Shown: one piece after another, positions 385-51,386 of the stretch
Numbering within the stretch: position 1 is the stretch's first letter
How the letters are laid out: each line of letters starts with the position of its first letter
Virus record (IMG/VR): IMGVR_UViG_3300050029_000262
Reading direction: 5' to 3' (one strand)
Source of the DNA: an uncultured virus (IMG/VR IMGVR_UViG_3300050029_000262)
Taxonomy: Duplodnaviria > Heunggongvirae > Uroviricota > Caudoviricetes
Length of the DNA: 64,000 bases
The notes under the pieces: generated by a model
The model's database searches: none
The model's input: only the letters and a program-made list of their open reading frames with translations
Told to the model about the DNA's origin: nothing
Position numbers and translations under genes: made by a program

Positions 385-2679
385 ATGCCTACCTGGACCA
401 AGCACACGAACTTCGGGCGCACCACACTCTCGGCAGACATCACCACGGAGATCGCCACCACCGCCGTCCTAACCTCGCTGATGGACTTTCCTGTGGCCTT
501 CCCCTTCTGGCTGACCCTCTGGGACGCCGCCACCTACCCTGACCCCATCAATGATGTGGCCGGACGGGAAGTCGTCCAGGTGACGGCCAACCCCTCCGCC
601 CTGACTTACACCATCGTCCGTGCCCAGTGCGGAACCTCCGCGCACACTCATGCCGCCGGTGCCGCCGTGGCCCTCTGTGTCATGGCCGAGGACCTCCAAG
701 AGTTGCAGGACGCCATTGACGCAGGTGGCGGCGCGCCCCATGCCGTCCTCTCCGCTACGCACACGGACACGCTTGTTGATACGGTCATCCGCGGCGACAT
801 CGTGTATGGCAACGCGACGCCCAAGTGGGCGCGGTTGCCGTTCCCCGGCACGCCTACCGGCAAGGTGTTAGTGGCAACGGCGACGGACGTGGCGTGGAGC
901 GCCGCACCCCTCGGCACGGCGGCCTTCACTCCGGCGACCAACTACGCCGTGGCGGCCAAGGGCGTCACCAACGGCGATAGCCACGACCACAATGGCGGGG
1001 ACGGCGCGCTGATACCGCTGGCCGGAATGGCGAACATGGCTACGGCTTCACTGCTGGGCCGCAAGACGGCCCTGGCGGGCGTGCCGGAAGTGCTGTCCGC
1101 AGCGGACGTCAAGACCCTGCTGGCCGTCGCCGTTGCGGACGTGTCCGGCCTGGGCACCATCGCCACCTACGCCTCCGGGGACTATGCCGTGACGGCGCGC
1201 GGGCTGCCCTCCGGTGGTGCCGCCGGGGAGGCCCTGGTCAAGGTGGACGGCACGGATTACAATGTACATTGGGCGGCGGCAGGCGGGGCCAATCACGCCG
1301 TCCTCTCCGCCACGCACACCGATACCCTGGCGGACACCGTGGTGCGCGGGGACGTACTGGTGGGCAATAACACGCCCAAGTGGGCGCGCCTGCCCTTCCC
1401 GGCGACCCCGACCGGCAAGGTACTGGTGGCGACTGCGACGGACGTGGCGTGGAGCGCCGCGCCCCTTGGCTCCGCCGCGTGGGCGGCCACGGGCGACTTC
1501 GCCGCCGTGGCGCAGACCATGTACATTGGCACAACCGCCGTGCCCATCAACCGGGGCAGCGGCGCGCTGTCTCTGGCTGGCGTCAACATCGACGGCGCGG
1601 CGGGTAGTGCCTCCGTTGCCGCCGTTGCCGACGTTGCAGCCACCGTCAACACGGCCATCCACAACACGGACTCCGGCCCTTATTGGATACCGCTACTGAC
1701 GGCACAAAGTCCTTCGGCCTTACTCTACAACGCTACTAAACTCTACTACATGCCCAACGCTGGCATCTTGCATGTCGGGGCGCGGTACTCCATGTTTGAC
1801 GAGACCACGCCCGCGCATGAACTATCCATGTGCTCCACCTCCTCGACGGCTCTCTCCGCTGACCGCCTCCTCAGTATTGATGTGGTGAATGCCGACCGCA
1901 CACTGAAAATGGGAGCTAATCTGGAGGTGACGGCGACGGCCGCCGTGGGCGGCACCAACACCGGGGACCAGGTGGTGCCCGTCACGGAGGCGGGCGCGGC
2001 GCACAACTTCCTGACCGCCTACAATGCTGGCACCGGCGCCTGGACCAAGGCGGTGCCGGCCCAGGCTGACATCACCGGCCTGACGACCGCCGACAGCCCG
2101 ACCTTTGCGGGCCTGACCATTGACTCGCCGACGCTCTACGTGGACAATGCCAACCATCGCGTGGGCATGGGAACTGTCTCGCCTCTGGTTGCTGTGCACG
2201 TCTATTCGACCTCCACAACGGCGATCATTGCCCAGCGTGATAGCAACCTTACCACGATTGGCATCAGCACCCCGACGCTTGGCGTCGAAAACCAAGACAA
2301 GACGACGAACAACTTTGCGGAGCTCCGGTTCACATCATTGGACAGTGCGGACGCGCGCCGCGTAGGGGCTGCCGTCAAGGCGGTCTTCGCCACCCGCGCC
2401 GCCGGTACACTGGCCGCAGACCTCGTGGGCATGGTGAATAACGAGAGCGCCTCGACGCTGTCGGAGGCGTGGCGGGCCACATCCAAGAAGAGTTTCATTC
2501 TCAATGACTCGGCCATTGCCACTAATGCCACTGATGGTTTTTTGTACATCGCCACCTGCACGGGTACGCCGACCGGAGTGCCGACTGCGGTGACCGGACG
2601 CAGGGCATTGGTGTATGACACTACAAACGACAAGCTGTACATTTACAATGACGGCTGGAAGAGTGCGACGTTTGCGTAG
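385..2679 (+). CDS. Phage tail fibre-like / receptor-binding structural protein
   Basis: 764 aa, Gly/Ala/Thr rich; 59-aa internal duplication; tail-fibre-like segments (PTFAGLTI..., RVGMGTVSP, LVYDTTNDKLYIYNDGWK). Confidence 0.7.
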   Translation: MPTWTKHTNFGRTTLSADITTEIATTAVLTSLMDFPVAFPFWLTLWDAATYPDPINDVAGREVVQVTANPSALTYTIVRAQCGTSAHTHAAGAAVALCVMAEDLQELQDAIDAGGGAPHAVLSATHTDTLVDTVIRGDIVYGNATPKWARLPFPGTPTGKVLVATATDVAWSAAPLGTAAFTPATNYAVAAKGVTNGDSHDHNGGDGALIPLAGMANMATASLLGRKTALAGVPEVLSAADVKTLLAVAVADVSGLGTIATYASGDYAVTARGLPSGGAAGEALVKVDGTDYNVHWAAAGGANHAVLSATHTDTLADTVVRGDVLVGNNTPKWARLPFPATPTGKVLVATATDVAWSAAPLGSAAWAATGDFAAVAQTMYIGTTAVPINRGSGALSLAGVNIDGAAGSASVAAVADVAATVNTAIHNTDSGPYWIPLLTAQSPSALLYNATKLYYMPNAGILHVGARYSMFDETTPAHELSMCSTSSTALSADRLLSIDVVNADRTLKMGANLEVTATAAVGGTNTGDQVVPVTEAGAAHNFLTAYNAGTGAWTKAVPAQADITGLTTADSPTFAGLTIDSPTLYVDNANHRVGMGTVSPLVAVHVYSTSTTAIIAQRDSNLTTIGISTPTLGVENQDKTTNNFAELRFTSLDSADARRVGAAVKAVFATRAAGTLAADLVGMVNNESASTLSEAWRATSKKSFILNDSAIATNATDGFLYIATCTGTPTGVPTAVTGRRALVYDTTNDKLYIYNDGWKSATFA
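739..1470 (+). repeat. Intragenic 177-bp duplication (739-915, 1294-1470) in the tail fibre gene
   Basis: HAVLSATHTDTLxDTVxRGD...TPKWARLPFPxTPTGKVLVATATDVAWSAAPLG occurs twice. Confidence 0.9.
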
Positions 2680-2704
2680 TCGCGCCAGCGGCAACCCGCC
2701 GTCG

Positions 2705-2733
2705 TGGCAACGCAGCCCGGTTTGCGCTATACT
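2705..2733 (+). promoter_or_regulatory. Putative sigma70-type promoter
   Basis: TGGCAA-N17-TATACT in the intergenic gap upstream of 2788. Confidence 0.45.
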
Positions 2734-2787
2734 AAGGTTTGACCCGCCTCAGGAAACAGAAAACGGGAAACGGGAGAGTGGACAATC

Positions 2788-3042
2788 ATGCGTAAGGCAG
2801 ATGCTCTGAAGCAGACACCCGCCGAGGAAACGATACATCTGGCGGACGGCCCCATGGACGTGACCATGGAGCATTACCGGCAGGTGATGCAGCAGAAGGC
2901 GCAGGAGCGCGTGCAAGCGTGCCTGGACCAAATCAACCGCGTGCTGGCGCAACACGGCTGCGCGCTGTCCGCCGAACCCGTCCTGACGCCGGACGGGCGG
3001 CTGTTGGCGCGGCCCCTTGTTGCCCTCAAGCCGGAAGAGTAA
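2788..3042 (+). CDS. Small hypothetical protein (possibly tail-fibre associated)
   Basis: RBS-like GGAGAG upstream; directly follows the fibre gene. Confidence 0.6.
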   Translation: MRKADALKQTPAEETIHLADGPMDVTMEHYRQVMQQKAQERVQACLDQINRVLAQHGCALSAEPVLTPDGRLLARPLVALKPEE

Positions 3043-3063
3043 CAGGGAAAGGCGGCGAGGCGT

Positions 3064-4473
3064 ATGTCTCTAGGCACCAGACCGCCGGGCACGGGAGCCT
3101 TCGGGAGCATCGGCGCGGGCGCAAATGACGCGCACAGGCCATTGAGATTACAGTTGTGCACCGTCGTTGACGTGTCCGTGCCCTATGTTTCGCAAAAGCC
3201 CGACCCGGCATCACCCGAGGAAACCCCTACGGTCTTCGGCTTAGACACCGTAGCGGGCTGGGGTCATACTCACCAGGGAGTGTATTTCTTTCTGCAAGCG
3301 GTGCCGTCCGGGTTCCCTGATGTTTGGACGAGCCTCGGACTTTACTTGAAGGATGTAACTTGCGAATCAGATCCAGGTCTTTTCGTGCAGGCATATGACG
3401 ACGGCGGCGCTATCAATACAACGCTGCGCATCAAAGTCGTCAAAGATGGCGGGGCCGCGCATCTGGAGGCTTACGTCGGAGGCTCATTGGTCTACCAAAC
3501 GGCGCCGGTCACCCTCGACGGAGACACCGATGAGTTTACGATGTCCCTCAAGTTATTTCCGGCGACCGCCTTGGACGGCGTGACGCCTCTGAGCAAGTTC
3601 GGGCCGGTGACGGCAACAGTCTGGGACATGGTGAACACTTACCCCAAGAGCACCGTTATCGTCGGCGTTGACGTGTCCGTCCCGACTGACTGGCTGAAAG
3701 TTCGCTTGTGGAGCAATCCCGGCGACGGAAGACTGTTAGGGCAGGGAAAGTGGCAATCGGAATTAGATTTAGTCCATTCCGGAGGGCTGCTTCCGGGGAC
3801 GGTAGTAGACAATGCCGGTTATCTACACGGCCTCGGGCGAGCCCTCTGGGTACACCTGATGGGTTACGTGAAACTCGTCGGAGATGTAGTCGCCGCCTTC
3901 GGCGACTACTCAGGAAGCCACCACGTCTACTACGCCTATCACTATCCCTACTTCAATCATCCTGATGAAATCAGGTTCCGCCTCTACGCCGCTGACCTGT
4001 CCACCTACGTCGAGACGGTGGTGGTTTCGGCGGCACCAGAGGCCGCCAGTCTCAACGCCTTCCAGTCAACGGGGCAAGCCGTCCACTTGTTCTATCTATC
4101 CTTCGGGGCATTACTCCACGCGCAAAGCGAGGACGGGGAAAGGACCTTCAACGTGACCTCTACAGGTCTATCCGGCTATTCAGAAGCAGACGTAATAGAG
4201 TTGCCCGTTGACAGTCGCGTGCTGGCCATGCTCCACGACGGCATCGAAGGCCACCACTGGTTCCAATCCATCGGCCTCTGGAATCCGGCGACGAATGACT
4301 ACGACTCATGGACGACGCCCAACGATACCGGCTTGGTCGGCAACGGGACGCGCGGCGCGTTGGAACGGCACTTTGACGGCTTGTTGGTCTTCACCTACTC
4401 CGACACCGGTCCCAGAGTGCGAGTGGTGCGGTGCGAGAACTTCAAGATCGACGGCACCGGCACCTGGGCATAG
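3064..4473 (+). CDS. Hypothetical virion structural protein
   Basis: 469 aa, beta-rich composition, in the tail gene block. Confidence 0.55.
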   Translation: MSLGTRPPGTGAFGSIGAGANDAHRPLRLQLCTVVDVSVPYVSQKPDPASPEETPTVFGLDTVAGWGHTHQGVYFFLQAVPSGFPDVWTSLGLYLKDVTCESDPGLFVQAYDDGGAINTTLRIKVVKDGGAAHLEAYVGGSLVYQTAPVTLDGDTDEFTMSLKLFPATALDGVTPLSKFGPVTATVWDMVNTYPKSTVIVGVDVSVPTDWLKVRLWSNPGDGRLLGQGKWQSELDLVHSGGLLPGTVVDNAGYLHGLGRALWVHLMGYVKLVGDVVAAFGDYSGSHHVYYAYHYPYFNHPDEIRFRLYAADLSTYVETVVVSAAPEAASLNAFQSTGQAVHLFYLSFGALLHAQSEDGERTFNVTSTGLSGYSEADVIELPVDSRVLAMLHDGIEGHHWFQSIGLWNPATNDYDSWTTPNDTGLVGNGTRGALERHFDGLLVFTYSDTGPRVRVVRCENFKIDGTGTWA

Positions 4474-4502
4474 CACCCGGCCCGGCGAGGTAACCAAACA
4501 TC

Positions 4503-4904
4503 ATGGCAGACCTGATCTACGACAAGGCCCTGGAGGCCTTCCTGACCGGCGCCCTTGACCCCCTCACCGGCAACGTCAAGGCCGCCCTCATCAATACCTC
4601 ACACTACACTGTGGACGGCGCCGCCCACCAGTTCCTGACGGCCCTGACGGCGGACGCCCTGGCCGTGGTGGCGACCTCGCCGAACCTCACCTCCAAGACC
4701 TACGCGGGAGGCGTCTTTGATGCGGCGGATACCCTCGTGCCCGCCGTGACCGGCGCGGCCTGCCAGGCCCTCGTCCTCTACGTGGACACCGGCACGCCCG
4801 CGACCTCCCGCCTGCTGTGCTACCTGGAGCCGGCCGCGCCTCTGACGCCGGACGGCAGCGACATTCTGCTGCGCTGGCCCGCCCTCGGCATCTTCGCCCT
4901 CTGA
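4503..4904 (+). CDS. Phage tail-associated structural protein
   Basis: MADLIYDKALEAFLTG...VKAALI...VFDAADT...LLCYL pattern resembles small phage tail proteins; GAGGT RBS. Confidence 0.6.
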   Translation: MADLIYDKALEAFLTGALDPLTGNVKAALINTSHYTVDGAAHQFLTALTADALAVVATSPNLTSKTYAGGVFDAADTLVPAVTGAACQALVLYVDTGTPATSRLLCYLEPAAPLTPDGSDILLRWPALGIFAL

Positions 4905-4920
4905 CCCGGAGCCAACGGCC

Positions 4921-7197
4921 ATGCCCACCAACTGGGACTTCAACAACCGGGCCGGAGGCGCAGGCGCCTACAAGCCTTCGTGGGCACCCGCCAAGCGGCC
5001 CCTCTATCCGATGGCCGACCTGCGCCTCTACGACCGCGGCGCGGAGGGCTACTGCACGGACACTGGGGACGCCATCTATGACATCATCGGGGAGGGCTAC
5101 GCCAGCGCCGACTTCTCGCAGACCCTCCATGACGGTCATCTTCTCAATGACCTCTTCTATGTGGAGGACATTGGCGCGCTCATCTGCCAGCCGCGCCGCG
5201 TGCCGGTCAACATGGCACTCGACCAGTTTGACTTCTCCGGCATGTGGCTGGACCGCACCGACACGGAGCGTTCCGACTTTGACTGGTTCGTGACGCCCCT
5301 GCCTTCCTACCCCGCCACTGACTTCCTGCGTCTGGACTTGGGCGCCGACTACTACAATGCCATCGCCGCCACCAAGTGGGCCTACCCGGATGAGGCCCCC
5401 ATCTCCTTTGACCTCATCGTGGAGCCCGCCACGCGCTCCTCCGACCCCTTCGACTTGCAGATGCGGCCCTTTACCGCCATCTTCTTCGGCGGCAACCGCT
5501 TCTGTCTGACGATGGAGGCGGGCGGCAACTGCTGGGCGCTGCGCTGGGATGGCACGCAGTACGTCCGCCTCGGCACCCTCAACCCGCAGTCGCAGACCCT
5601 CAGTGACCTCGACAATGGCAGCGTCAACGTCATCTCCTTCCTCATCCTGAGTTTCCGGGGCAACGTCTACCTGTCCGTTGATGCGGGCACCAAGTTCGTC
5701 CAACTGGACAATCAGCCGCTGCCGGGCGGGCCCCTGACCGTGCAGTGGTATCAGATGTCCGGCGGCCTGGCCATCAATTCGCTGGAGATGACCAGCGGCA
5801 CCTACCAGCCGGAGAACCTGCCCCTGTTCGAGGACCGTTCCGCGCAGTCGCCAGCCAAGGTGCTGACGGAGGGCTTCCACTACAATGCCCCAGCGGGCCT
5901 GGGCAACACCGGCCTGACACCCTACCTGGACCTGACGCAGATCCCGACCTGGCCGGGCAACGGTGACAAGTTTGCCTACTACGCAACCCTGGCCCCGCTG
6001 ATAGTGGCGGCGGAGGCGGGCACGCCCTGGCCCTACTGGTACTTCAGCCCGGCCCTGATGGCAGCGGAGTTTCGCTACGCGGCGGCAGTGGCCGACCCGA
6101 CCCCGGACGCCTACGTCCATCTGACCGACTACGGCGTGTTGGGTCTGACCGTGGAGTTGCCGGACGGGCACGACTCGGCCACTGCCTCCGTCAACCTGAT
6201 GCTCGACCCGCGCCTCATCTTCACCGGCGAGTACCGGCGCCGGTACATTGAAATTGACCTGGGCCTGTGCTACGTGGACGGCACCTGGGAGTTGTGGCCG
6301 GCCGTGGCGGGCTACATCGTATCCGCCCGCACGCGCGGGGAACCTGACTGGCGCAGCGGGCACAGCTTGGTCTTCAACATCGTGGACGGCTCCCTGGCCG
6401 GGCGGGGCGGCAGTGGCGGCAGCACCATTGACGAAAGTTGGCCGCCCCTGGACGGCTGGACGCCCAACACCGCCCTGTCCTTCGCCGCGGCGAAGATTGG
6501 CGTCCACGCCAGCCGCTGTAGCTGGCACTCCGACCTGCTGCCCGGCGGTGACCAAATCTACCTGTCGCGCGGCCCCGGCGAGAACCCCATCTGGTGGCGT
6601 ACCGGGGAGTTGCCTCTGGACATGACTGTCTGGGACGCCATGACCCTGATTGCGGACTTCGCCGGCCTGGAACTGTTCGTCGCCCCGGACGGCACCTGGA
6701 CCACGCGGCTCCGCGGCGACTACTTCGACCTGATTGACTTCGACGCGGCGGGCTGCTACCCGTACACCGCCAAGACCATCGAGTACGAGGCGGCGGCCCT
6801 GGACAGCGGCACGGCCAGCATTGCCTCCGGGGAGGACGCGAACGGCCGGTACGTGGCGGGCTGGCTCATCAACTTTGACAAGGAGCGCGCGCCGGGTACG
6901 GACCTGTTCAACGGCCGCCGTGCCTGGCAGCGCAACGCCGGGCGGCGCTTCGCCACCGCCGGGGACGCCATCGCCGCCGCCTCTACCGCCTTTGACAAGC
7001 AGCAGGAGGACCAGTACAACCTGATGTGGGATACACCCCTCATGCCGATAGTTCTGCGGGGCGACCGGGTACTCATCAAGAATGCCCAGGGGGACGGCGT
7101 GAACCCCAACGCGCAACACCAGGTGGAGAGTCTGCACCACACCGTGCAGCCCCGGCTGGAGGGGACGGGCACGGAGTTCAAGGCGAGGCGCGTCTGA
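4921..7197 (+). CDS. Minor tail / baseplate hub-like protein
   Basis: 758 aa; C-terminal hub-like pattern (WDAMTLIADFAGLELFVAPDG ... LRGDRVLI ... VESLHH). Confidence 0.55.
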   Translation: MPTNWDFNNRAGGAGAYKPSWAPAKRPLYPMADLRLYDRGAEGYCTDTGDAIYDIIGEGYASADFSQTLHDGHLLNDLFYVEDIGALICQPRRVPVNMALDQFDFSGMWLDRTDTERSDFDWFVTPLPSYPATDFLRLDLGADYYNAIAATKWAYPDEAPISFDLIVEPATRSSDPFDLQMRPFTAIFFGGNRFCLTMEAGGNCWALRWDGTQYVRLGTLNPQSQTLSDLDNGSVNVISFLILSFRGNVYLSVDAGTKFVQLDNQPLPGGPLTVQWYQMSGGLAINSLEMTSGTYQPENLPLFEDRSAQSPAKVLTEGFHYNAPAGLGNTGLTPYLDLTQIPTWPGNGDKFAYYATLAPLIVAAEAGTPWPYWYFSPALMAAEFRYAAAVADPTPDAYVHLTDYGVLGLTVELPDGHDSATASVNLMLDPRLIFTGEYRRRYIEIDLGLCYVDGTWELWPAVAGYIVSARTRGEPDWRSGHSLVFNIVDGSLAGRGGSGGSTIDESWPPLDGWTPNTALSFAAAKIGVHASRCSWHSDLLPGGDQIYLSRGPGENPIWWRTGELPLDMTVWDAMTLIADFAGLELFVAPDGTWTTRLRGDYFDLIDFDAAGCYPYTAKTIEYEAAALDSGTASIASGEDANGRYVAGWLINFDKERAPGTDLFNGRRAWQRNAGRRFATAGDAIAAASTAFDKQQEDQYNLMWDTPLMPIVLRGDRVLIKNAQGDGVNPNAQHQVESLHHTVQPRLEGTGTEFKARRV

Positions 7198-7394
7198 TGT
7201 CACTACAAGGGAAGTTCACCAACATCTACCGGGACCTGGCCCGCACCGCCGACCGCAACGCCCGGATGCGGGACGCCAACCAGGAGGCCCGCCAGCAGGC
7301 CGGCGCCACTGCTACGCCGGGCACCTTCGTCGGCAGCGTCAAACGGCATGGCCTGTGGGGCATCACGGCCTGGGATGACTTCTACTGGAGGTAA
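7197..7394 (+). CDS. Small hypothetical tail-region protein
   Basis: ATG overlaps the upstream TGA (TGATG) and its stop overlaps the next ATG (TAATG). Confidence 0.6.
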   Translation: MSLQGKFTNIYRDLARTADRNARMRDANQEARQQAGATATPGTFVGSVKRHGLWGITAWDDFYWR

Positions 7395-13627: not shown

Positions 13628-13831
13628 ATGCCGTCCCTCCAACCGGCCATCAACCTGCTACGCCACCGCGCCGAGGAACTCCGCGCCGAGATCGAGGACC
13701 GCAATGCCCACCCGCTCTGTAGCACCGTGACGCAGCAGGCCAAGCGCCGGGAGGAAGAGGCAGCTTGTCTCGCGGCGGCTCTGCTACTCGTAGCGGCGGA
13801 GGACCAGGAACTGCACGACTTAGGCCTCTGA
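13628..13831 (+). CDS. Hypothetical protein
   Basis: GAGGAG RBS; ends just before a terminator-like hairpin. Confidence 0.55.
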   Translation: MPSLQPAINLLRHRAEELRAEIEDRNAHPLCSTVTQQAKRREEEAACLAAALLLVAAEDQELHDLGL

Positions 13832-13852
13832 CGACAATCTGACCAGCGTACC

Positions 13853-13886
13853 ACGCCACGACACGCCAGACCCGTCGTGGCGTTTT
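13853..13886 (+). terminator. Rho-independent terminator ending the structural block
   Basis: ACGCCACGAC-loop-GTCGTGGCGT followed by TTT. Confidence 0.6.
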
Positions 13887-13962
13887 CGTGCGTGCCCGGC
13901 GGCTTTGGCGGAGAGTGGGCTAAACGGCCTGCCGGTGGGCCTAAAATAGTTATAGACTTTTC

Positions 13963-13982
13963 CTATAGTTACGCCCTATAAT
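13963..13982 (+). promoter_or_regulatory. Promoter motif CTATAG-N7-YTATAAT (copy 1; early promoter)
   Basis: CTATAG TTACGCC CTATAAT in an AT-rich island; same spacing at 22680 and 50088. Confidence 0.7.
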
Positions 13983-14384
13983 AATAGTACGGCGGGGGCA
14001 GGGGCGGGGGCGGGCCGGAGCGACCTTGACAAACAGGAGGAGGAAGGGGACAGTTTCGGCCCCGCGGCTTTTAGCGGCGAGGTTCGATTATCCCAGGACG
14101 CGCCGGGGCGGTTTCCGCCCTTAACGTCCGCCCCTCATATCGGTTGGAACCGCGGGAGCGCAAAAATCCCTCACGCGGCATCCTATCTCGGCCTGACTAA
14201 GGCCGACCGCTACAGACGGGCCGCGCCGCCTCCCACCCCTGGGAGGGGGCACGGACAGGAGTGGAGACACGGGGCGATGATTGCCCCGGCGCAGGTCTCG
14301 CCTCCCCCCGGCCGAGGGCGGCAAACGAGGTAGTCCAACCGGGTTCCCGATGTTTGCGGAACGAAACCGGGCCGGTGCGAGCGG

Positions 14385-14452
14385 CCCGAAGTATCAGCAT
14401 ACCTGAGCTGGCTGACGAGACCGGGTTAGGGTCCGGTCGAAACTTGAAAGGG
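14385..14452 (+). ncRNA. Type III hammerhead ribozyme
   Basis: AAGU-A(cleavage after 14393)-stem I UCAGC/GCUGG-CUGACGA-stem II GACCGG/CCGGUC-GAAACUU; loop I ACCU can pair with loop II GGGU. Confidence 0.85.
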
Positions 14453-14460
14453 TGAATGAA

Positions 14461-15033
14461 ATGACAACGACACAGACCACAGAGGCAATTACCATCCGAC
14501 GCGGCAGCGGCTACGGCGCTCGCGCCTATAAGGTCGGAGGCATCGTAGTAACCCGCAAACCCGGCCACGCGCAGCAGATACTCGTCGTGGTCTCGGCGAC
14601 TGAGAAATACTTCCGCGAGGACGGCCTGAGTTTTGGCGTCGGCGATGACCGCGGCTACATTTATAGTGCCAAGTGCCGCCAGGCCAATGCCGAGGAAATC
14701 GCGCAGGTTGTCGCCGCCGACCACGCCTCTGCGGTTGCCGAATGGGCGAAGCGGGAGCGAGAGGCGATTGCCTCCGAGATCATGGCCGCAGGCGAGTATC
14801 CTGCTGACGGCAACGACGCCGTTGAGGGCGAACGCCTCTGCGACGCGCAGAACATCTATGGCAGCGGAGATTGGTTCGTGATTGGCGCTGAATGGACGTG
14901 GTATATCCGCAACAATGGGATGGACGGCGACAACTGGTCGGCCAACAACGTGCAGACCTGTGGGGCCGGGGCACGCGGCTGGCGCGTGCCGACGACTGAG
15001 AAACTGACGGCGCGGCTGCAGAAACTCGGCTGA
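14461..15033 (+). CDS. Early hypothetical protein
   Basis: GAAAGGGTGAATGAAATG start motif immediately after the ribozyme. Confidence 0.7.
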   Translation: MTTTQTTEAITIRRGSGYGARAYKVGGIVVTRKPGHAQQILVVVSATEKYFREDGLSFGVGDDRGYIYSAKCRQANAEEIAQVVAADHASAVAEWAKREREAIASEIMAAGEYPADGNDAVEGERLCDAQNIYGSGDWFVIGAEWTWYIRNNGMDGDNWSANNVQTCGAGARGWRVPTTEKLTARLQKLG

Positions 15034-15121
15034 TGGTTCACCAAGGAGGCCCGGCCCGGCGCCGGACCTCTCTGTGAACCCTCCTCTTTAGAGGACGGGA
15101 CGAAACGAAAGGGTGACTGAA

Positions 15122-15586
15122 ATGATGATGACCACGGACGTGAAGGAATTGACTTTGACGGCGGCGGCGGACGCAATCCGGCAGGCGCTGGGTGCGCTGG
15201 CGACGGGTTCGGTGCCGCCCAATTATGACGACGAGATGGGCATCGGTCGGGATGCCGAAGATGGCGAGGCGGCGGCGGAGCGCCGGGCGCGTCTGGGCAT
15301 CACGCACTTCGGTGACGCGGAGGAGGCGGGCATCAGGATGCGGCGCCCGGACCTCTACCCGGAGTTGCAGCCCAAAGAGAACTTCGAAGTCATGTGCGAG
15401 GGGCTGTACGGCGAGGCCCGAGCCGCCGATGCCGCCAAGCAGCCGGCCCTCGCCGAGACCCTGCGGAAACTGGTCTTCATCCTGAAAGACCTGCGCCAGT
15501 GCGGAGCCGACGCAGCCGCCCACGGCGATGACCGCGTCCGCAACATCACCCGGGACAGCTTCAGCCTGCTGAAGAACCTGGGGTAG
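15122..15586 (+). CDS. Early hypothetical protein
   Basis: GAAAGGGTGACTGAAATG start motif. Confidence 0.65.
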   Translation: MMMTTDVKELTLTAAADAIRQALGALATGSVPPNYDDEMGIGRDAEDGEAAAERRARLGITHFGDAEEAGIRMRRPDLYPELQPKENFEVMCEGLYGEARAADAAKQPALAETLRKLVFILKDLRQCGADAAAHGDDRVRNITRDSFSLLKNLG

Positions 15587-15624
15587 ACAGACACCGACGA
15601 ACACGAAAGGGTGAGTGAGTGACC

Positions 15625-16281
15625 ATGACCTATGAAGAGGTCGTCGCAAAGATGATGCTGCAGATCGAGCAAACGGTGGGCGAGAGCTATGCGGAGTTGG
15701 ATCGCAAGGCCAAGGCACTGGAAAAGTTGGAGGGTCACTACATTGGGAACCGCCGCGACAACGTGACAGGCCACAACGGGTACATCATCGCCGACATGGA
15801 CGCCGAGGGAGACACCCTTCTCGCCCTCGCCGACGCACTGCCCGATCCGCCGGGGAAGTACGGTCCAGTGATCCTGGCTAACCACCTGCAGGCCAGCCTA
15901 CTCCGCACCGCCGTCGAGCGCACCGTCCGCGACCTGAGCGTCGAGATCGAGGCCCTGGGCGGGGAGTGCAGCCTCAACCTCGCCAGCCTTCCTCCGAAGG
16001 CCAAAATCGAAAGGGTGAATGAAATGACACGCAAGCAGTTTATCGAGAAGTTGGACGCGGCGGACGTGCATTACGACAAGGTGGTGGCCAAGGCTGACAA
16101 GCAGACCTTTGAGGTCAAGGCGGGCTACTTCTACCACAACAACAACGCGGATGCCCGCCGCCACGCTGCCTTGGTGGCGTTGTTCCCGACCGCGACCATC
16201 ACGGTGCGGGATGACTTCCGCCCCTGGCCGCGGGACAGCTACATGGTCTGCGAGGTCTGCTTCCCGGCGGAGGCGAACTGA
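15625..16281 (+). CDS. Early hypothetical protein; probably two genes in frame (second start at 16024)
   Basis: Start motif at 15605 and an identical internal GAAAGGGTGAATGAAATG at 16009-16026. Confidence 0.6.
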   Translation: MTYEEVVAKMMLQIEQTVGESYAELDRKAKALEKLEGHYIGNRRDNVTGHNGYIIADMDAEGDTLLALADALPDPPGKYGPVILANHLQASLLRTAVERTVRDLSVEIEALGGECSLNLASLPPKAKIERVNEMTRKQFIEKLDAADVHYDKVVAKADKQTFEVKAGYFYHNNNADARRHAALVALFPTATITVRDDFRPWPRDSYMVCEVCFPAEAN

Positions 16282-22679: not shown

Positions 22680-22699
22680 CTATAGCAATAGGTTATAAT
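22680..22699 (+). promoter_or_regulatory. Promoter motif CTATAG-N7-YTATAAT (copy 2; replication operon)
   Basis: CTATAG CAATAGG TTATAAT. Confidence 0.7.
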
Positions 22700-22747
22700 A
22701 GAGGACCGGCCAGGAAGGCCGCACCCCTCTTTCAGAAGGAGAAATCA

Positions 22748-39139: not shown

Positions 39140-39384
39140 CCCCCATGCCGGAACGCAAGCATAAGCGCAAGCCGGTCGGCCAGTGGAACGCCCGCCGGGA
39201 GGGCCGCTGGCGGATCTGGAAGTCAACTACCCGCACGCTCTTCCTGCCGCCCCTCTGGTACTGGGGAGTACAGTTCACGAACTACAAGGCGGACGCCGAC
39301 GAGCCCCACGAGTGGGGTACGGCCACCTGGGCCTGGCTGGCGCGGCGGCGCGCCCTGCGGGCCCTGAAAGAAGGCGGACGATGA
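39136..39384 (+). CDS. Hypothetical protein
   Basis: Coupled on both sides. Confidence 0.5.
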   Translation: MTPMPERKHKRKPVGQWNARREGRWRIWKSTTRTLFLPPLWYWGVQFTNYKADADEPHEWGTATWAWLARRRALRALKEGGR

Positions 39385-40151
39385 GAGCAATCTACGAGCC
39401 CAAGGGCGCGGCCCGCGAGTACGCACCCCTGGCCTGCAATCTCTACGACGGTTGCCTGCACGGATGCACCTACTGCTACGCGCCCGGCTGTCGCCGCATG
39501 ACCCGCGAGGCCTTCGCGACGGACATCAAGCCATACCCAAACATCCTCCAGAGGCTGGAGAAGGATGCCGACGAAATGGCGGCTGCTGGTGACACCCGGC
39601 GCGTGCTGTTCTCATTTACATCCGACCCGTACCAGGAGTACGCGGCCGGTTGCGACGTAACCCGTGAGGCCCTGCAGATCATGGTTGACCGGGGGCTGCA
39701 GTTTTCCGTCTGCACGAAGGGCGGGATGCGGGCGGCGCGGGACTTCGACCTGCTCAAGCGGGGCGGACAACTTGGGGTGTCGCTGGTCTGGGGAATGGGG
39801 GATGACATTTGGCCGCAGGAGAAGTGGGAACCAAACGCCGCGAGTTGTTATGACCGCCTCGCGTCTGTCTTCCACGCGACACGCCACGGCATCTACACCT
39901 GGGCCAGTATTGAGCCGGTCATCGAGCCGACTTCTGCCCTCAAGGCCATCAAGTCGCTGGCCTACAACGGATGCGACGAGTTCCGCGTTGGCAAGATCAA
40001 CCATGACGCCGCGCTGGCCGCGGGCGTGGACTGGCAGGCCTTCACGGACGAATGCTACGCCCTGCTACTCTACCTGAAGCGCCCGTTCCTGTTCAAGGAG
40101 AGCCTGCACCCATACCTACAGGGCCGGCCCGTGACGGGCGGCCCGCAGTAA
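39381..40151 (+). CDS. Radical SAM protein (spore-photoproduct-lyase-like phage family)
   Basis: YDGCLHGCTYCYAP, FSFTSDPY, TKGG, SIEPVI. Confidence 0.85.
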   Translation: MRAIYEPKGAAREYAPLACNLYDGCLHGCTYCYAPGCRRMTREAFATDIKPYPNILQRLEKDADEMAAAGDTRRVLFSFTSDPYQEYAAGCDVTREALQIMVDRGLQFSVCTKGGMRAARDFDLLKRGGQLGVSLVWGMGDDIWPQEKWEPNAASCYDRLASVFHATRHGIYTWASIEPVIEPTSALKAIKSLAYNGCDEFRVGKINHDAALAAGVDWQAFTDECYALLLYLKRPFLFKESLHPYLQGRPVTGGPQ

Positions 40152-47437: not shown

Positions 47438-48115
47438 ATGCGCCAAGTCAAGATCATCAACAAGCCGCTGGACTGGTTCACCGACAATCCCGACAACTAC
47501 CGGGCGCATCCCGCCGACCAGCAGGCCGTGCTCCAGCGCAGCCTGCGGAAATTTGGTGTGGTAAAGAATGTGGTAGCCCGGCCGGACGGCACCATTCTGT
47601 GCGGGCACGGCATCATCGCCGCGGCCAAGGCGGAGGGGCTGGCGGACTTCCCGGTGGTGATCTTCGAGGGCACAGACGCGGAGGCCAAGGCGCTGCTGAT
47701 CACCGACAACGAAATCAGCACCATGGCGATGGATGATGACCGCGCCCTGACGAACCTGCTCAAGGACCTCCAGGACATCGACCCGGAGTTGCTGGAAGTC
47801 ACCGGGTTTGACAGCATGAAGTTGGCGGCCCTGGTGTTGGTGACGCGCAGGGAAGATGAGATACCCGACTTCGATGCGGCCCTCCATTGGACAGGGATGC
47901 CGGAGGTGGAGGAGCGGCAGCGCAAGACGGGCGTGGAGCTCATTGTGCGGTTTGAGACAGAGGAACAACGGCAGGAGTTCATGGAGCGCAACCAGTTGAG
48001 AAACCTGTCAACGGGTGCAGAAAAGCGTAGCGGCGCAACGATGTCCGCCTGGTATCCAGCTAGACCACGAGACAATCCGGGCAGCAGCCGGTTTGCCGAC
48101 GGAGATGATGAGTAA
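47438..48115 (+). CDS. ParB N-terminal-domain protein (third)
   Basis: NPDNYRAHP..Q...L..SLRKFG.VKNVV....ILCGHG...AA, LITDN, TGF. Confidence 0.85.
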   Translation: MRQVKIINKPLDWFTDNPDNYRAHPADQQAVLQRSLRKFGVVKNVVARPDGTILCGHGIIAAAKAEGLADFPVVIFEGTDAEAKALLITDNEISTMAMDDDRALTNLLKDLQDIDPELLEVTGFDSMKLAALVLVTRREDEIPDFDAALHWTGMPEVEERQRKTGVELIVRFETEEQRQEFMERNQLRNLSTGAEKRSGATMSAWYPARPRDNPGSSRFADGDDE

Positions 48116-48977
48116 CATGCGGCTGCCCCGTTACCCTGTCTACATTCCCTCTCGCGGGCGTAGTGATGAATGCCTGACGGCCCGGTTTCTGGAGCATGAC
48201 GGTGTGCCTTTCCGGTTGGTGGTGGAGCCGCAGGAGCACGATCTGTACGCGGCTCGGTTTGGTGCGGAGCGGCTGCTGGTGCTACCGGAGAAAAACACGA
48301 CTGGCCTCCACTGGGCACGCAACTGGATTAAGGACCATGCCGTAGCAGAGGGGCATGCGCGGCACTGGCAACTGGATGACAACTGCCGACGCATAGCCAG
48401 ACTCTACCAAGGGCGGCGCATCCCTTGCGCCGCGGGCGTGGCCCTGGCCGCCACTGAGGACTTCGTGGACCGCTATGAGAATATCGCCGTCGCCGGCCTG
48501 AACTATGAGATGTTCCTGCCTTCCACATACGACGGCATTCCCACCCCGCCCTTCCGGGTCAACGTCCACGTCTACTCCTGCTCGCTCATCCTCAACAGCA
48601 TTCCAAACCGCTGGCGCTGTGCCTATAATGACGACACGGACCTCTGCTTGCAGGTATTGGCGGACGGCTGGTGTACGCTGCTGATGAACGCCTTCATGGT
48701 CAAGAAGATGACAACCATGACCATGCACGGCGGCAACACGGATGACTTCTACCAGGGCGACGGCCGGCTGCGCATGTCGCGCTCCCTGGAGCGCCTCTGG
48801 CCGGGTGTGGTGGAGACCAAGCGCCGCTACGGCCGCCCGCAGCACGTCATCAACTGGCGCAAGTTCCGCACGGAACTGAGGCTCAAGCCGGGCCTGTCGG
48901 TGACTGACGGCCCGGATGAGTACGGCATGGTACTGGGGCCGAACCCCAACTACTGCAAAGGAGCCGCCACCCCATGA
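48105..48977 (+). CDS. GREB1-like / TET-associated-type glycosyltransferase (putative DNA-modifying)
   Basis: YPVYIPSRGR, LVVEPQE..Y, ARNWI, HWQLDDN, YNDDTDLCLQVL, MHGGNT. Confidence 0.75.
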   Translation: MMSNMRLPRYPVYIPSRGRSDECLTARFLEHDGVPFRLVVEPQEHDLYAARFGAERLLVLPEKNTTGLHWARNWIKDHAVAEGHARHWQLDDNCRRIARLYQGRRIPCAAGVALAATEDFVDRYENIAVAGLNYEMFLPSTYDGIPTPPFRVNVHVYSCSLILNSIPNRWRCAYNDDTDLCLQVLADGWCTLLMNAFMVKKMTTMTMHGGNTDDFYQGDGRLRMSRSLERLWPGVVETKRRYGRPQHVINWRKFRTELRLKPGLSVTDGPDEYGMVLGPNPNYCKGAATP

Positions 48978-50087: not shown

Positions 50088-50107
50088 CTATAGGTTTAGG
50101 CTATAAT
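50088..50107 (+). promoter_or_regulatory. Promoter motif CTATAG-N7-YTATAAT (copy 3)
   Basis: CTATAG GTTTAGG CTATAAT. Confidence 0.7.
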
Positions 50108-50160
50108 AGTTAGCAGGCGGGGGACAAGCCAATCGAGCATAAGGGAAGGACTGAGATGAA

Positions 50161-50449: not shown

Positions 50450-50848
50450 ATGGCAATGAGCAGAGACGCTGAAGGCGGTTGTACCCGTCGCGCCGGAGAG
50501 GTCGATAAGGACTGGGATGCACGCTGGAGGAACATGATGGACCAGTGCGAGAACTGGCCCTACCTATGTCGGACGTGCGTGGCCGAGTACCTGGGCGCGG
50601 CCGTCGTGGAGGCGACCATCCAGCGGACGGACGCCTGGCGGCGCATGTTTCTAAAGATGCAGCACGACCGCCTGGTGGTGGGCGTGCGGCAGTTCTTCGC
50701 GGACGGGCGAGGCGGCGTGACGGCCTTGCGGGAGGCCTTCCCGCAGGCCTTGAAGTCCGAGTTGCTGGCGGCGCTGGACGCCATCATTGCCGAGGATCTG
50801 GCGGCGGCGGTAGAGAAGGCGGAGGCCGGAACCCATGCCCCTCACTGA
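50450..50848 (+). CDS. Hypothetical protein
   Basis: GGAGG/AGGA RBS. Confidence 0.55.
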   Translation: MAMSRDAEGGCTRRAGEVDKDWDARWRNMMDQCENWPYLCRTCVAEYLGAAVVEATIQRTDAWRRMFLKMQHDRLVVGVRQFFADGRGGVTALREAFPQALKSELLAALDAIIAEDLAAAVEKAEAGTHAPH

Positions 50849-51386
50849 TGCCCTGGCGGCGGAGTTCGAGACCCTGGTGACGATGCAACGCGGCTGGCTC
50901 ACCAGCGTGGCCTGCAAGCGCCTGGGCGGCAACCCGGAGGAGGCGGCGGACGCAGTGCAGACGGCGGTATCCAAGGCCTGGGTAGCCCTGCCGCACTTCC
51001 GCCATCAGGCAACCATGCGCACCTGGCTGGCCACCATCCTCGTGCATGTCTGCTTGGATGCGTGCCGACGACACGCCTACGGACCGGAGTTCCTGTCGGC
51101 GGATGAGGAGGCGGAGTGGGGTGATGACTTGGCCGACCCGGCGGGTGACGTGGCCAGGGAGGTCGTGGGGCGGGATACGCTGCGCCGCGTGGCGGCCGCC
51201 GTGGATGCCTGCGGGCACTCCAGCTACATGCGGGCGGTGGTGGCGCGGGACCTGGACGGGCAGACCTACGAGGACGCGGCGGGCGGCCTGGGAGTGCACA
51301 TAGACACGTTCAAGGCGCAACTGTGGCGGGGACGGCAATGCTTGCGAGCCCTGCTGCTCGCGGAAGAGAGTGAGACTGATGTTTGA
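50835..51386 (+). CDS. ECF-type RNA polymerase sigma factor
   Basis: Region 2 EAADAVQ..KAW..LPHFR....TWL..I...CLD..RR; region 4 DGQTYEDAA..LGV...TFKAQLWRGR. Confidence 0.85.
   Translation: MPLTDALAAEFETLVTMQRGWLTSVACKRLGGNPEEAADAVQTAVSKAWVALPHFRHQATMRTWLATILVHVCLDACRRHAYGPEFLSADEEAEWGDDLADPAGDVAREVVGRDTLRRVAAAVDACGHSSYMRAVVARDLDGQTYEDAAGGLGVHIDTFKAQLWRGRQCLRALLLAEESETDV

Follow-up and report, generated by a model that had tools for sequence, protein, structure and literature searches.

Thousands of hammerhead ribozymes are known from phages and bacteria, and to our knowledge the roles of most of them are unproven. RiboJ, the element with which synthetic biologists standardise mRNA 5' ends, consists of the sTRSV hammerhead and a hairpin. 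The direct precedent for the locus described here is the hammerhead of the haloviruses HF1 and HF2 (HHphage). In the available part of Perreault et al. 2011 (PLoS Comput Biol, PMC3088659), it is placed 13 nt ahead of the start codon of the ORF that opens an early polycistronic transcript, and the mapped 5' end of this transcript falls no more than 3 nt from the cleavage site. The same part of that report also covers prophage and phage hammerheads that flank genes and are read as processing long phage transcripts. For RiboJ, the accessible text of Clifton et al. 2018 (PMC6206723) gives an increase of about 2-fold in transcript abundance and of 2- to 10-fold in protein, while hammerheads of RNA mycoviruses, located in their 5' UTRs, enable translation according to the accessible text of Lopez-Galiano et al. 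2026 (NAR, PMC13725137).

The locus studied here belongs to an uncultured high-GC phage (~64% GC), represented by a window of 64,000 nucleotides (the whole stretch of DNA that was analysed). A type III hammerhead motif was located in a 630-nt gap between two plus-strand gene blocks, together with the following features:

13853-13891, plus strand: terminator-like hairpin closing the upstream gene block, an inverted repeat
13953-13983, plus strand: promoter-like site TAGACT-18 nt-TATAAT in an AT-rich island, promoter score 10/12
13990-14388, plus strand: noncoding, GC-rich leader of ~400 nt, its start placed from the -10 box
14389-14445, plus strand: type III hammerhead ribozyme motif, recognised by its core, the RF00008 alignment, a descriptor, three compensatory stem I pairs and a null model
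14446-14466, plus strand: 21-nt translation-initiation module GAAAGGGTGAATGAAATGACA, repeated at gene starts
14461-15033, plus strand: first gene after the ribozyme, 190 aa, from the ORF list

Like HHphage, as far as the available part of PMC3088659 describes it, the motif is found in a virus of prokaryotes and before a polycistronic block with replication genes, the gap to the start codon being 15 nt here and 13 nt there. HHphage is, however, a core variant from an archaeal virus with a helicase gene behind it, whereas the motif of the peat phage has a canonical core, a ~400-nt leader ahead and a protein of 190 aa without a family match behind, all in a high-GC phage. The prophage and phage hammerheads in the same part of Perreault et al. 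2011 share with it an intergenic position on the sense strand of phage DNA; those of prophages occur there in clusters of several, whereas the window holds a single copy. With RiboJ, as presented in the accessible text of Clifton et al. 2018, the peat phage motif shares a place between the promoter or leader and the ribosome-binding site; its predicted cleavage would likewise remove variable upstream RNA and leave the ribozyme body on the mRNA. RiboJ is man-made and carries an extra 3' hairpin that exposes the ribosome-binding site, a hairpin absent from the natural element of the peat phage. It is likely that the peat phage ribozyme is what nature offers as an equivalent of the RiboJ insulator. 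The mycovirus hammerheads also sit in a viral 5' leader and are tied to expression of the downstream ORF; from what the accessible text of that study reports, they are eukaryotic, cap-independent, of type I and carried by RNA genomes, and their mechanism is not transferable to translation driven by a Shine-Dalgarno sequence. The layout is already known from other viruses, and what distinguishes the present locus from these precedents is the canonical core, the type III topology, the long leader ahead and the repeated initiation module adjoining.

The hammerhead motif and its computational support

The sequence-only reading had called a type III hammerhead at this position, and inspection of the sequence found every element that it had listed in its place. 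The parts of the motif are as follows:

14389-14392 with 14442-14445, plus strand: stem III, 4 bp, AAGU with ACUU, from sequence reading
A14393, plus strand: H17, in the triplet GUA 14391-14393; predicted cut between A14393 and U14394
14394-14398 with 14407-14411, plus strand: stem I, 5 bp, UCAGC with GCUGG
14399-14406, plus strand: loop I, 8 nt, AUACCUGA
14412-14418 and 14439-14441, plus strand: core strands CUGACGA and GAA, the latter followed by A15.1 at 14442
14419-14424 with 14433-14438, plus strand: stem II, 6 bp, GACCGG with CCGGUC
14425-14432, plus strand: loop II, 8 nt, GUUAGGGU

All the core positions that we take to be invariant in hammerheads, with the core numbering and the NUH rule that we likewise assume for 14389-14445, were found to be canonical (C3 U4 G5 A6 N7 G8 A9 and G12 A13 A14), with C at N7. 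The A15.1-U16.1 pair is formed by A14442-U14392 and the G10.1-C11.1 pair by G14419-C14438, and H17 is A14393, not G. Loops close stems I and II while stem III is open and lets both RNA ends exit, which is the type III topology. The stem I pair adjoining the core is a U.G wobble in the window copy. With the core and all three stems present and three stem I pairs covarying in a relative, the call was upheld and, judged from its sequence, 14389-14445 is a genuine and complete type III hammerhead motif.

The rarity of the motif was assessed using a descriptor of our own for type III (CUGANGA, GAAA, a U16.1-H17 site, stems of at least 4, 4 and 3 bp, and loops of any length). Applied to both strands of the 64-kb window, it returned a single site, 14389-14445, and 200 shuffled versions of the window (first-order Markov) contained no site at all. 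No other hammerhead was found in the window with looser settings or with our own type I and type II descriptors.

The Rfam hammerhead models, which the sequence-only reading had named as a check on its call, gave a divided answer. A 70-nt stretch was aligned end to end with RF00008 (clan CL00010; model positions 1-54 of 54) at 27.5 bits and E 1.3e-4, 21 bits short of the gathering score of 48.5 bits, a curation cut-off that does not define a ribozyme. In this alignment three outer stem III pairs are marked as non-standard and both loops exceed the model length. No match was returned for the whole window at the gathering thresholds, and none to Hammerhead_3 for a 251-nt stretch at E<=10. Among the matches that this 251-nt search did return, a 12-bit Hammerhead_1 fragment was judged spurious and a snoRNA match was set aside. 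A match to the Pseudomonas P36 sRNA (21.8 against 36 bits, E 0.024) was absent when 13830-14400 was searched, and is read as two generic GC hairpins.

Folding was less discriminating. The hammerhead secondary structure of the 57-nt motif was calculated at -14.8 kcal/mol, 3.4 less stable than the nested minimum free energy (MFE) fold at -18.2, which draws on the complementarity between the loops, and the fold of the 79-nt stretch is not unusually stable (z = -1.08). Thermodynamics alone, as modelled here, does not single out the hammerhead fold.

About 40% of hammerheads, of all three types, use a pseudoknot between loops I and II, according to the available part of Perreault et al. 2011 (PMC3088659). 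Complementary loops, ACCU with GGGU, had been put forward as fitting such an activating contact. The complementarity is present, in two registers: ACCU 14401-14404 with GGGU 14429-14432 (4 bp), and CCUGA with UUAGG (5 bp, -4.9 kcal/mol). Runs of at least 4 were obtained in 68% of shuffled loop pairs and runs of at least 5 in 27%, so the observed complementarity is not above chance and was dropped as evidence for the motif.

A natural variant in a peat metagenome

The sequencing runs listed as containing the stretch are exclusively DNA runs of peat metagenomes, with no RNA run among them, and two of these runs may be where the window itself comes from. Four of them were examined for variants, with 13987-14022 left out as a repeat. 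Run X3 yielded a contig of 5800 nt (depth 13.8) that is ~93% like the window over 13850-14470 and unlike it past 14470.

Inside the motif this relative carries nine substitutions and one insertion. Six of the substitutions form three double changes in stem I (14394 T>G with 14411 G>C, 14395 C>A with 14410 G>T, and 14396 A>G with 14409 T>C), by which U.G becomes G-C, C-G becomes A-U and A-U becomes G-C, so that three of the five pairs are changed and all are still paired. A further substitution (14416 C>T) hits N7, the sole free position of the core. The loops account for the remainder, with 14405 G>A and a T inserted after 14399 in loop I, and 14428 A>T in loop II. No change was found at an invariant core base or in a pair of stem II or stem III. 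In addition, TCC is inserted directly after 14445, the end of stem III, at the joint between the ribozyme and the initiation module.

This pattern was compared with a null model of random sets of nine substitutions, in which the core and all 15 pairs were spared in 0.04% of 200,000 trials, and three double-changed pairs occurred in none of those trials. The leader served as an internal control: under its MFE fold none of its 21 X3 substitutions is compensatory, 7 break predicted pairs, 3 keep a pair by a one-sided change and 11 are unpaired.

The covariation in homologues on which the sequence-only reading had made its call depend was thus found for stem I, with three double-changed pairs from one relative; stems II and III are invariant in X3, and the relative is consequently uninformative on them. 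Note that the stem I changes are adjacent to one another, three on either strand, and may go back to one replacement event rather than to independent ones. Taken with the null model, the variant suggests that the hammerhead has been kept by selection, which forms part of the joint explanation that we consider probable below.

The X3 changes also bear on the loops. Substitutions 14405 and 14428 lie opposite each other in the ACCU/GGGU register, where a G/A mismatch becomes an A-U pair, while in the CCUGA/UUAGG register they break the central pair. From this sequence comparison the loop changes would favour the ACCU/GGGU register, without settling it.

Genome context, initiation module and further relatives

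The phage encodes a portal-like protein, a Pam3 gp34-like protein, a sigma factor, a DNA methylase, a primase, an SNF2 helicase and a DUF932 protein, together with a TET-associated glycosyltransferase (PF20691, E 4e-44). A blastn search with 13800-15100 returned no match among GenBank phages or PLSDB plasmids. The sigma-70-type factor is the phage's own, and a radical SAM protein gave a weak match below the Pfam cut-off; the glycosyltransferase, radical SAM and sigma-70-type factor genes are at 48015-48977, 39183-40151 and 50835-51386, respectively. As read from their sequences, these three suggest DNA hypermodification and a phage-directed transcription switch.

The hairpin that closes the upstream gene block has perfect 10-bp arms (13853-13862 and 13874-13883) followed by a T-run, TTTTCGTG, and was missed by the terminator scan because its loop is 11 nt. 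The promoter-like site includes the motif TATAG-N8-TATAATA, of which the window has three copies, on the plus strand only (13964-13983, 22681-22700 and 50089-50108), and 100 shuffles have none. The X3 relative differs at this site solely at the spacer or flank bases 13961 and 13971, leaving the specified bases intact. Each copy was observed to precede a plus-strand gene block, and the motif is probably the phage's own early promoter class.

The other two copies are followed by leaders of only ~45-55 nt, and a leader of ~400 nt is present solely at the 13964 copy. This long leader ends in a GC hairpin (14367-14388) adjoining stem III, has an MFE of -214 kcal/mol (z = -3.2) and is ~94% conserved in the X3 relative. 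A search of 13830-14400 against Rfam at E<=5 returned no family match for it. A coding reading was rejected for the leader ORFs 14261-14455 and 14281-14406 on the plus strand and 14121-14324, 14210-14338 and 14197-14724 on the minus strand, as the X3 changes in them are mostly nonsynonymous, with stops and frameshifting indels. A G-tract repeat, GGCGGGGGCAGG then GGCGGGGGCGGG, was also observed at 13991-14014, just past the putative start of transcription, and its G-runs are sufficient for a G-quadruplex on the sense strand.

At its other side the motif was said to abut the ribosome-binding site of the first early gene. The first part of that statement was confirmed, since 14445 is the last base in the 3' arm of stem III and the repeated 21-nt module starts at 14446. 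From this point the sequence reads GAAAGGGUGAAUGAAAUG, with a Shine-Dalgarno-like GGGUGA at 14450-14455, 5 nt ahead of the ATG at 14461-14463, which is itself 15 nt past the motif. The gene is also the first after the promoter-like site and has replication genes downstream, whereas 'early' is a guess from gene order. The module recurs at gene starts of the same block, being identical at 16009-16029 and present with 3 mismatches at 15107-15127; a similar sequence lies ahead of 15625 (about 15606-15628). In the X3 relative it is unchanged, through 14470. The copy at 16009 was observed to lie in frame within ORF 15619-16281, which may for that reason be two genes or have an internal start.

The 190-aa product of the first gene was 43% identical over residues 40-189 to a sequence of a Sedimenticola MAG in a tblastn search (E 2e-31). 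It had no match in Pfam, PHROG, NCBIfam or PDB, and all Atlas leads were below 0.8.

Further relatives were sought through this protein, through its neighbours and through the motif itself. Relatives of the 190-aa protein were found at four weak loci in genome contigs, with a hammerhead at none, and were not found in viral contigs. The DUF932 and SNF2 neighbours each led to one distant viral contig (34% and 32% identity, respectively), in which RF00008 was not detected at E<=1. A pattern based on stem II matched 94 loci in viral contigs; 89 of these loci with the same stem II sequence held type I motifs by our own descriptor, in contrast to the type III motif of the peat phage, and a single one was type III-like, overlapping a type I. 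With a pattern based on stem III at least 117 loci were matched in viral contigs, and among the matches listed four were type III, none of them resembling 14389-14445. Two pattern scans of metagenomes gave no match each. Among the matches listed, the viral and metagenome collections searched contained no relative besides the X3 contig, and on this basis the hammerhead element looks specific to its lineage.

The stem II pattern also drew attention to a 43.9-kb viral contig, IMGVR_UViG_3300031999_000054, with 13 distinct matches in its first 7.4 kb (about 420-7380), spaced ~300-1150 nt apart and all of type I by our own descriptor. This is an unusually dense array, like the prophage clusters described in the available part of Perreault et al. 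2011 (PMC3088659).

The similarity to X3 stops abruptly at 14470/14471, 10 nt into the first ORF, and the X3 sequence past 14470 had no match in the window at up to 3 mismatches. The abrupt end, the repeated module and the TCC insertion at the joint between ribozyme and module together suggest, at the level of sequence comparison, a mosaic junction at the gene start. An extended reading would make the promoter, the long leader, the hammerhead and the 21-nt module a portable expression cassette, reused by phages of this lineage before different genes. In its support, the ~93% similarity extends from the leader across the ribozyme and the Shine-Dalgarno sequence to the tenth nucleotide of the ORF before it stops, the TCC insertion falls at the joint, and the repetition of the module at other gene starts would provide points for recombination. 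Even so, we regard it as unlikely that the cassette exists in this form; if it does, the ribozyme would be the source of its context independence, and the freed leader may function by itself.

Proposed mechanism, alternatives and significance

The explanation that we favour, and hold to be probable, is that a type III hammerhead under selection in the 5' leader of a phage operon removes the leader, sets a uniform, structured 5'-OH end on the mRNA, insulates its expression and probably slows its decay. It starts from the observed motif, its statistics, its structure-preserving variation and its placement, and from these we infer the cleavage, the start of transcription and the effect on stability or expression.

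In the proposed sequence of events, transcription from the promoter-like site at 13953-13983 would begin at about 13990, and RNA polymerase would traverse the ~400-nt GC-rich noncoding leader and then the ribozyme. Stems I, II and the short stem III would fold co-transcriptionally, and the RNA would cut itself between A14393 and U14394. The freed leader would bear a 2',3'-cyclic phosphate and, tethered by only the 4 bp of stem III, should dissociate rather than religate. The 5'-OH of the operon mRNA would then coincide with the foot of the stem I hairpin. The ribozyme body would form a compact structure at the 5' end, followed by the Shine-Dalgarno sequence and, 15 nt on, the ATG. Every mRNA would carry the same short, structured 5' end without a phosphate, whatever the leader or the read-through from upstream genes, so that expression would be uncoupled from the leader and decay that depends on the 5' end would probably be slowed.

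Hairpins at the 5' terminus and a missing 5' monophosphate slow decay of the RNase E/J type. It is this knowledge, together with the RiboJ precedent, that favours definition of the 5' end, insulation and stabilisation as the outcome of cleavage. The earlier suggestion that release of the leader could affect stability or translation is a reasonable one, with precedents in HF1/HF2 and RiboJ. The mean unpaired probability of 14446-14455 was 0.59 while the full leader was attached and 0.53 once it had been cleaved off, so that the Shine-Dalgarno sequence is equally accessible before and after and the folds predict no gain in translation; they lend no support to cleavage unmasking the Shine-Dalgarno sequence. 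The short stem III (4 bp) and the U.G wobble by the core count against the best explanation.

These two weaknesses, and the score below the Rfam gathering threshold, are what would be expected if the motif resembled a hammerhead by chance, or had decayed into an inactive relic that no longer plays a role. We consider this highly improbable, given that the descriptor found nothing in 200 shuffles and that X3 retains the core and all pairs despite nine substitutions, an outcome reached by 0.04% of random sets. Another reading keeps the cleavage and reverses its purpose, in that the ribozyme would serve mainly to generate the 3' terminus of the RNA upstream of it, the ~400-nt leader would be a functional noncoding RNA (for example a decoy or a regulator) and the mRNA end would be a by-product. 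Such a role would suit a leader that is long at just one of three like promoters, folds better than shuffles and is ~94% conserved in X3. It is nevertheless quite unlikely in our estimate, as the MFE fold shows no compensatory change among the 21 leader substitutions and 7 of them break predicted pairs, as the leader has no Rfam match at E<=5, and as the viral and metagenome collections yielded no relative.

The element could also act as a conditional switch, in which regulated cleavage or a competing fold toggles translation or decay of the operon through Shine-Dalgarno release, ions or a ligand. The nested fold that competes with the hammerhead secondary structure is the more stable by 3.4 kcal/mol, the 79-nt MFE structure allows a pairing of CCC 14385-14387 to GGG 14450-14452, and salt-tuned control is proposed for the halovirus variant in the available part of Perreault et al. 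(PMC3088659). Longer folds, however, place CCC 14385-14387 in the strong hairpin 14367-14388, the accessibility of 14446-14455 hardly differs after cleavage, and no aptamer-like element was detected in the Rfam searches, and we hold a switch to be very unlikely.

Under the favoured explanation, in which cleavage would define the 5' end of the operon mRNA, the peat phage example leaves knowledge of the hammerhead class itself unchanged. It does indicate that the RF00008 gathering score misses a well-supported environmental phage example. The clear layout of promoter, long leader, ribozyme, shared module and gene, together with a natural variant that preserves the structure, makes the locus a convenient test case for whether phages standardise the 5' ends of their mRNAs by self-cleavage, as synthetic biologists do with RiboJ.
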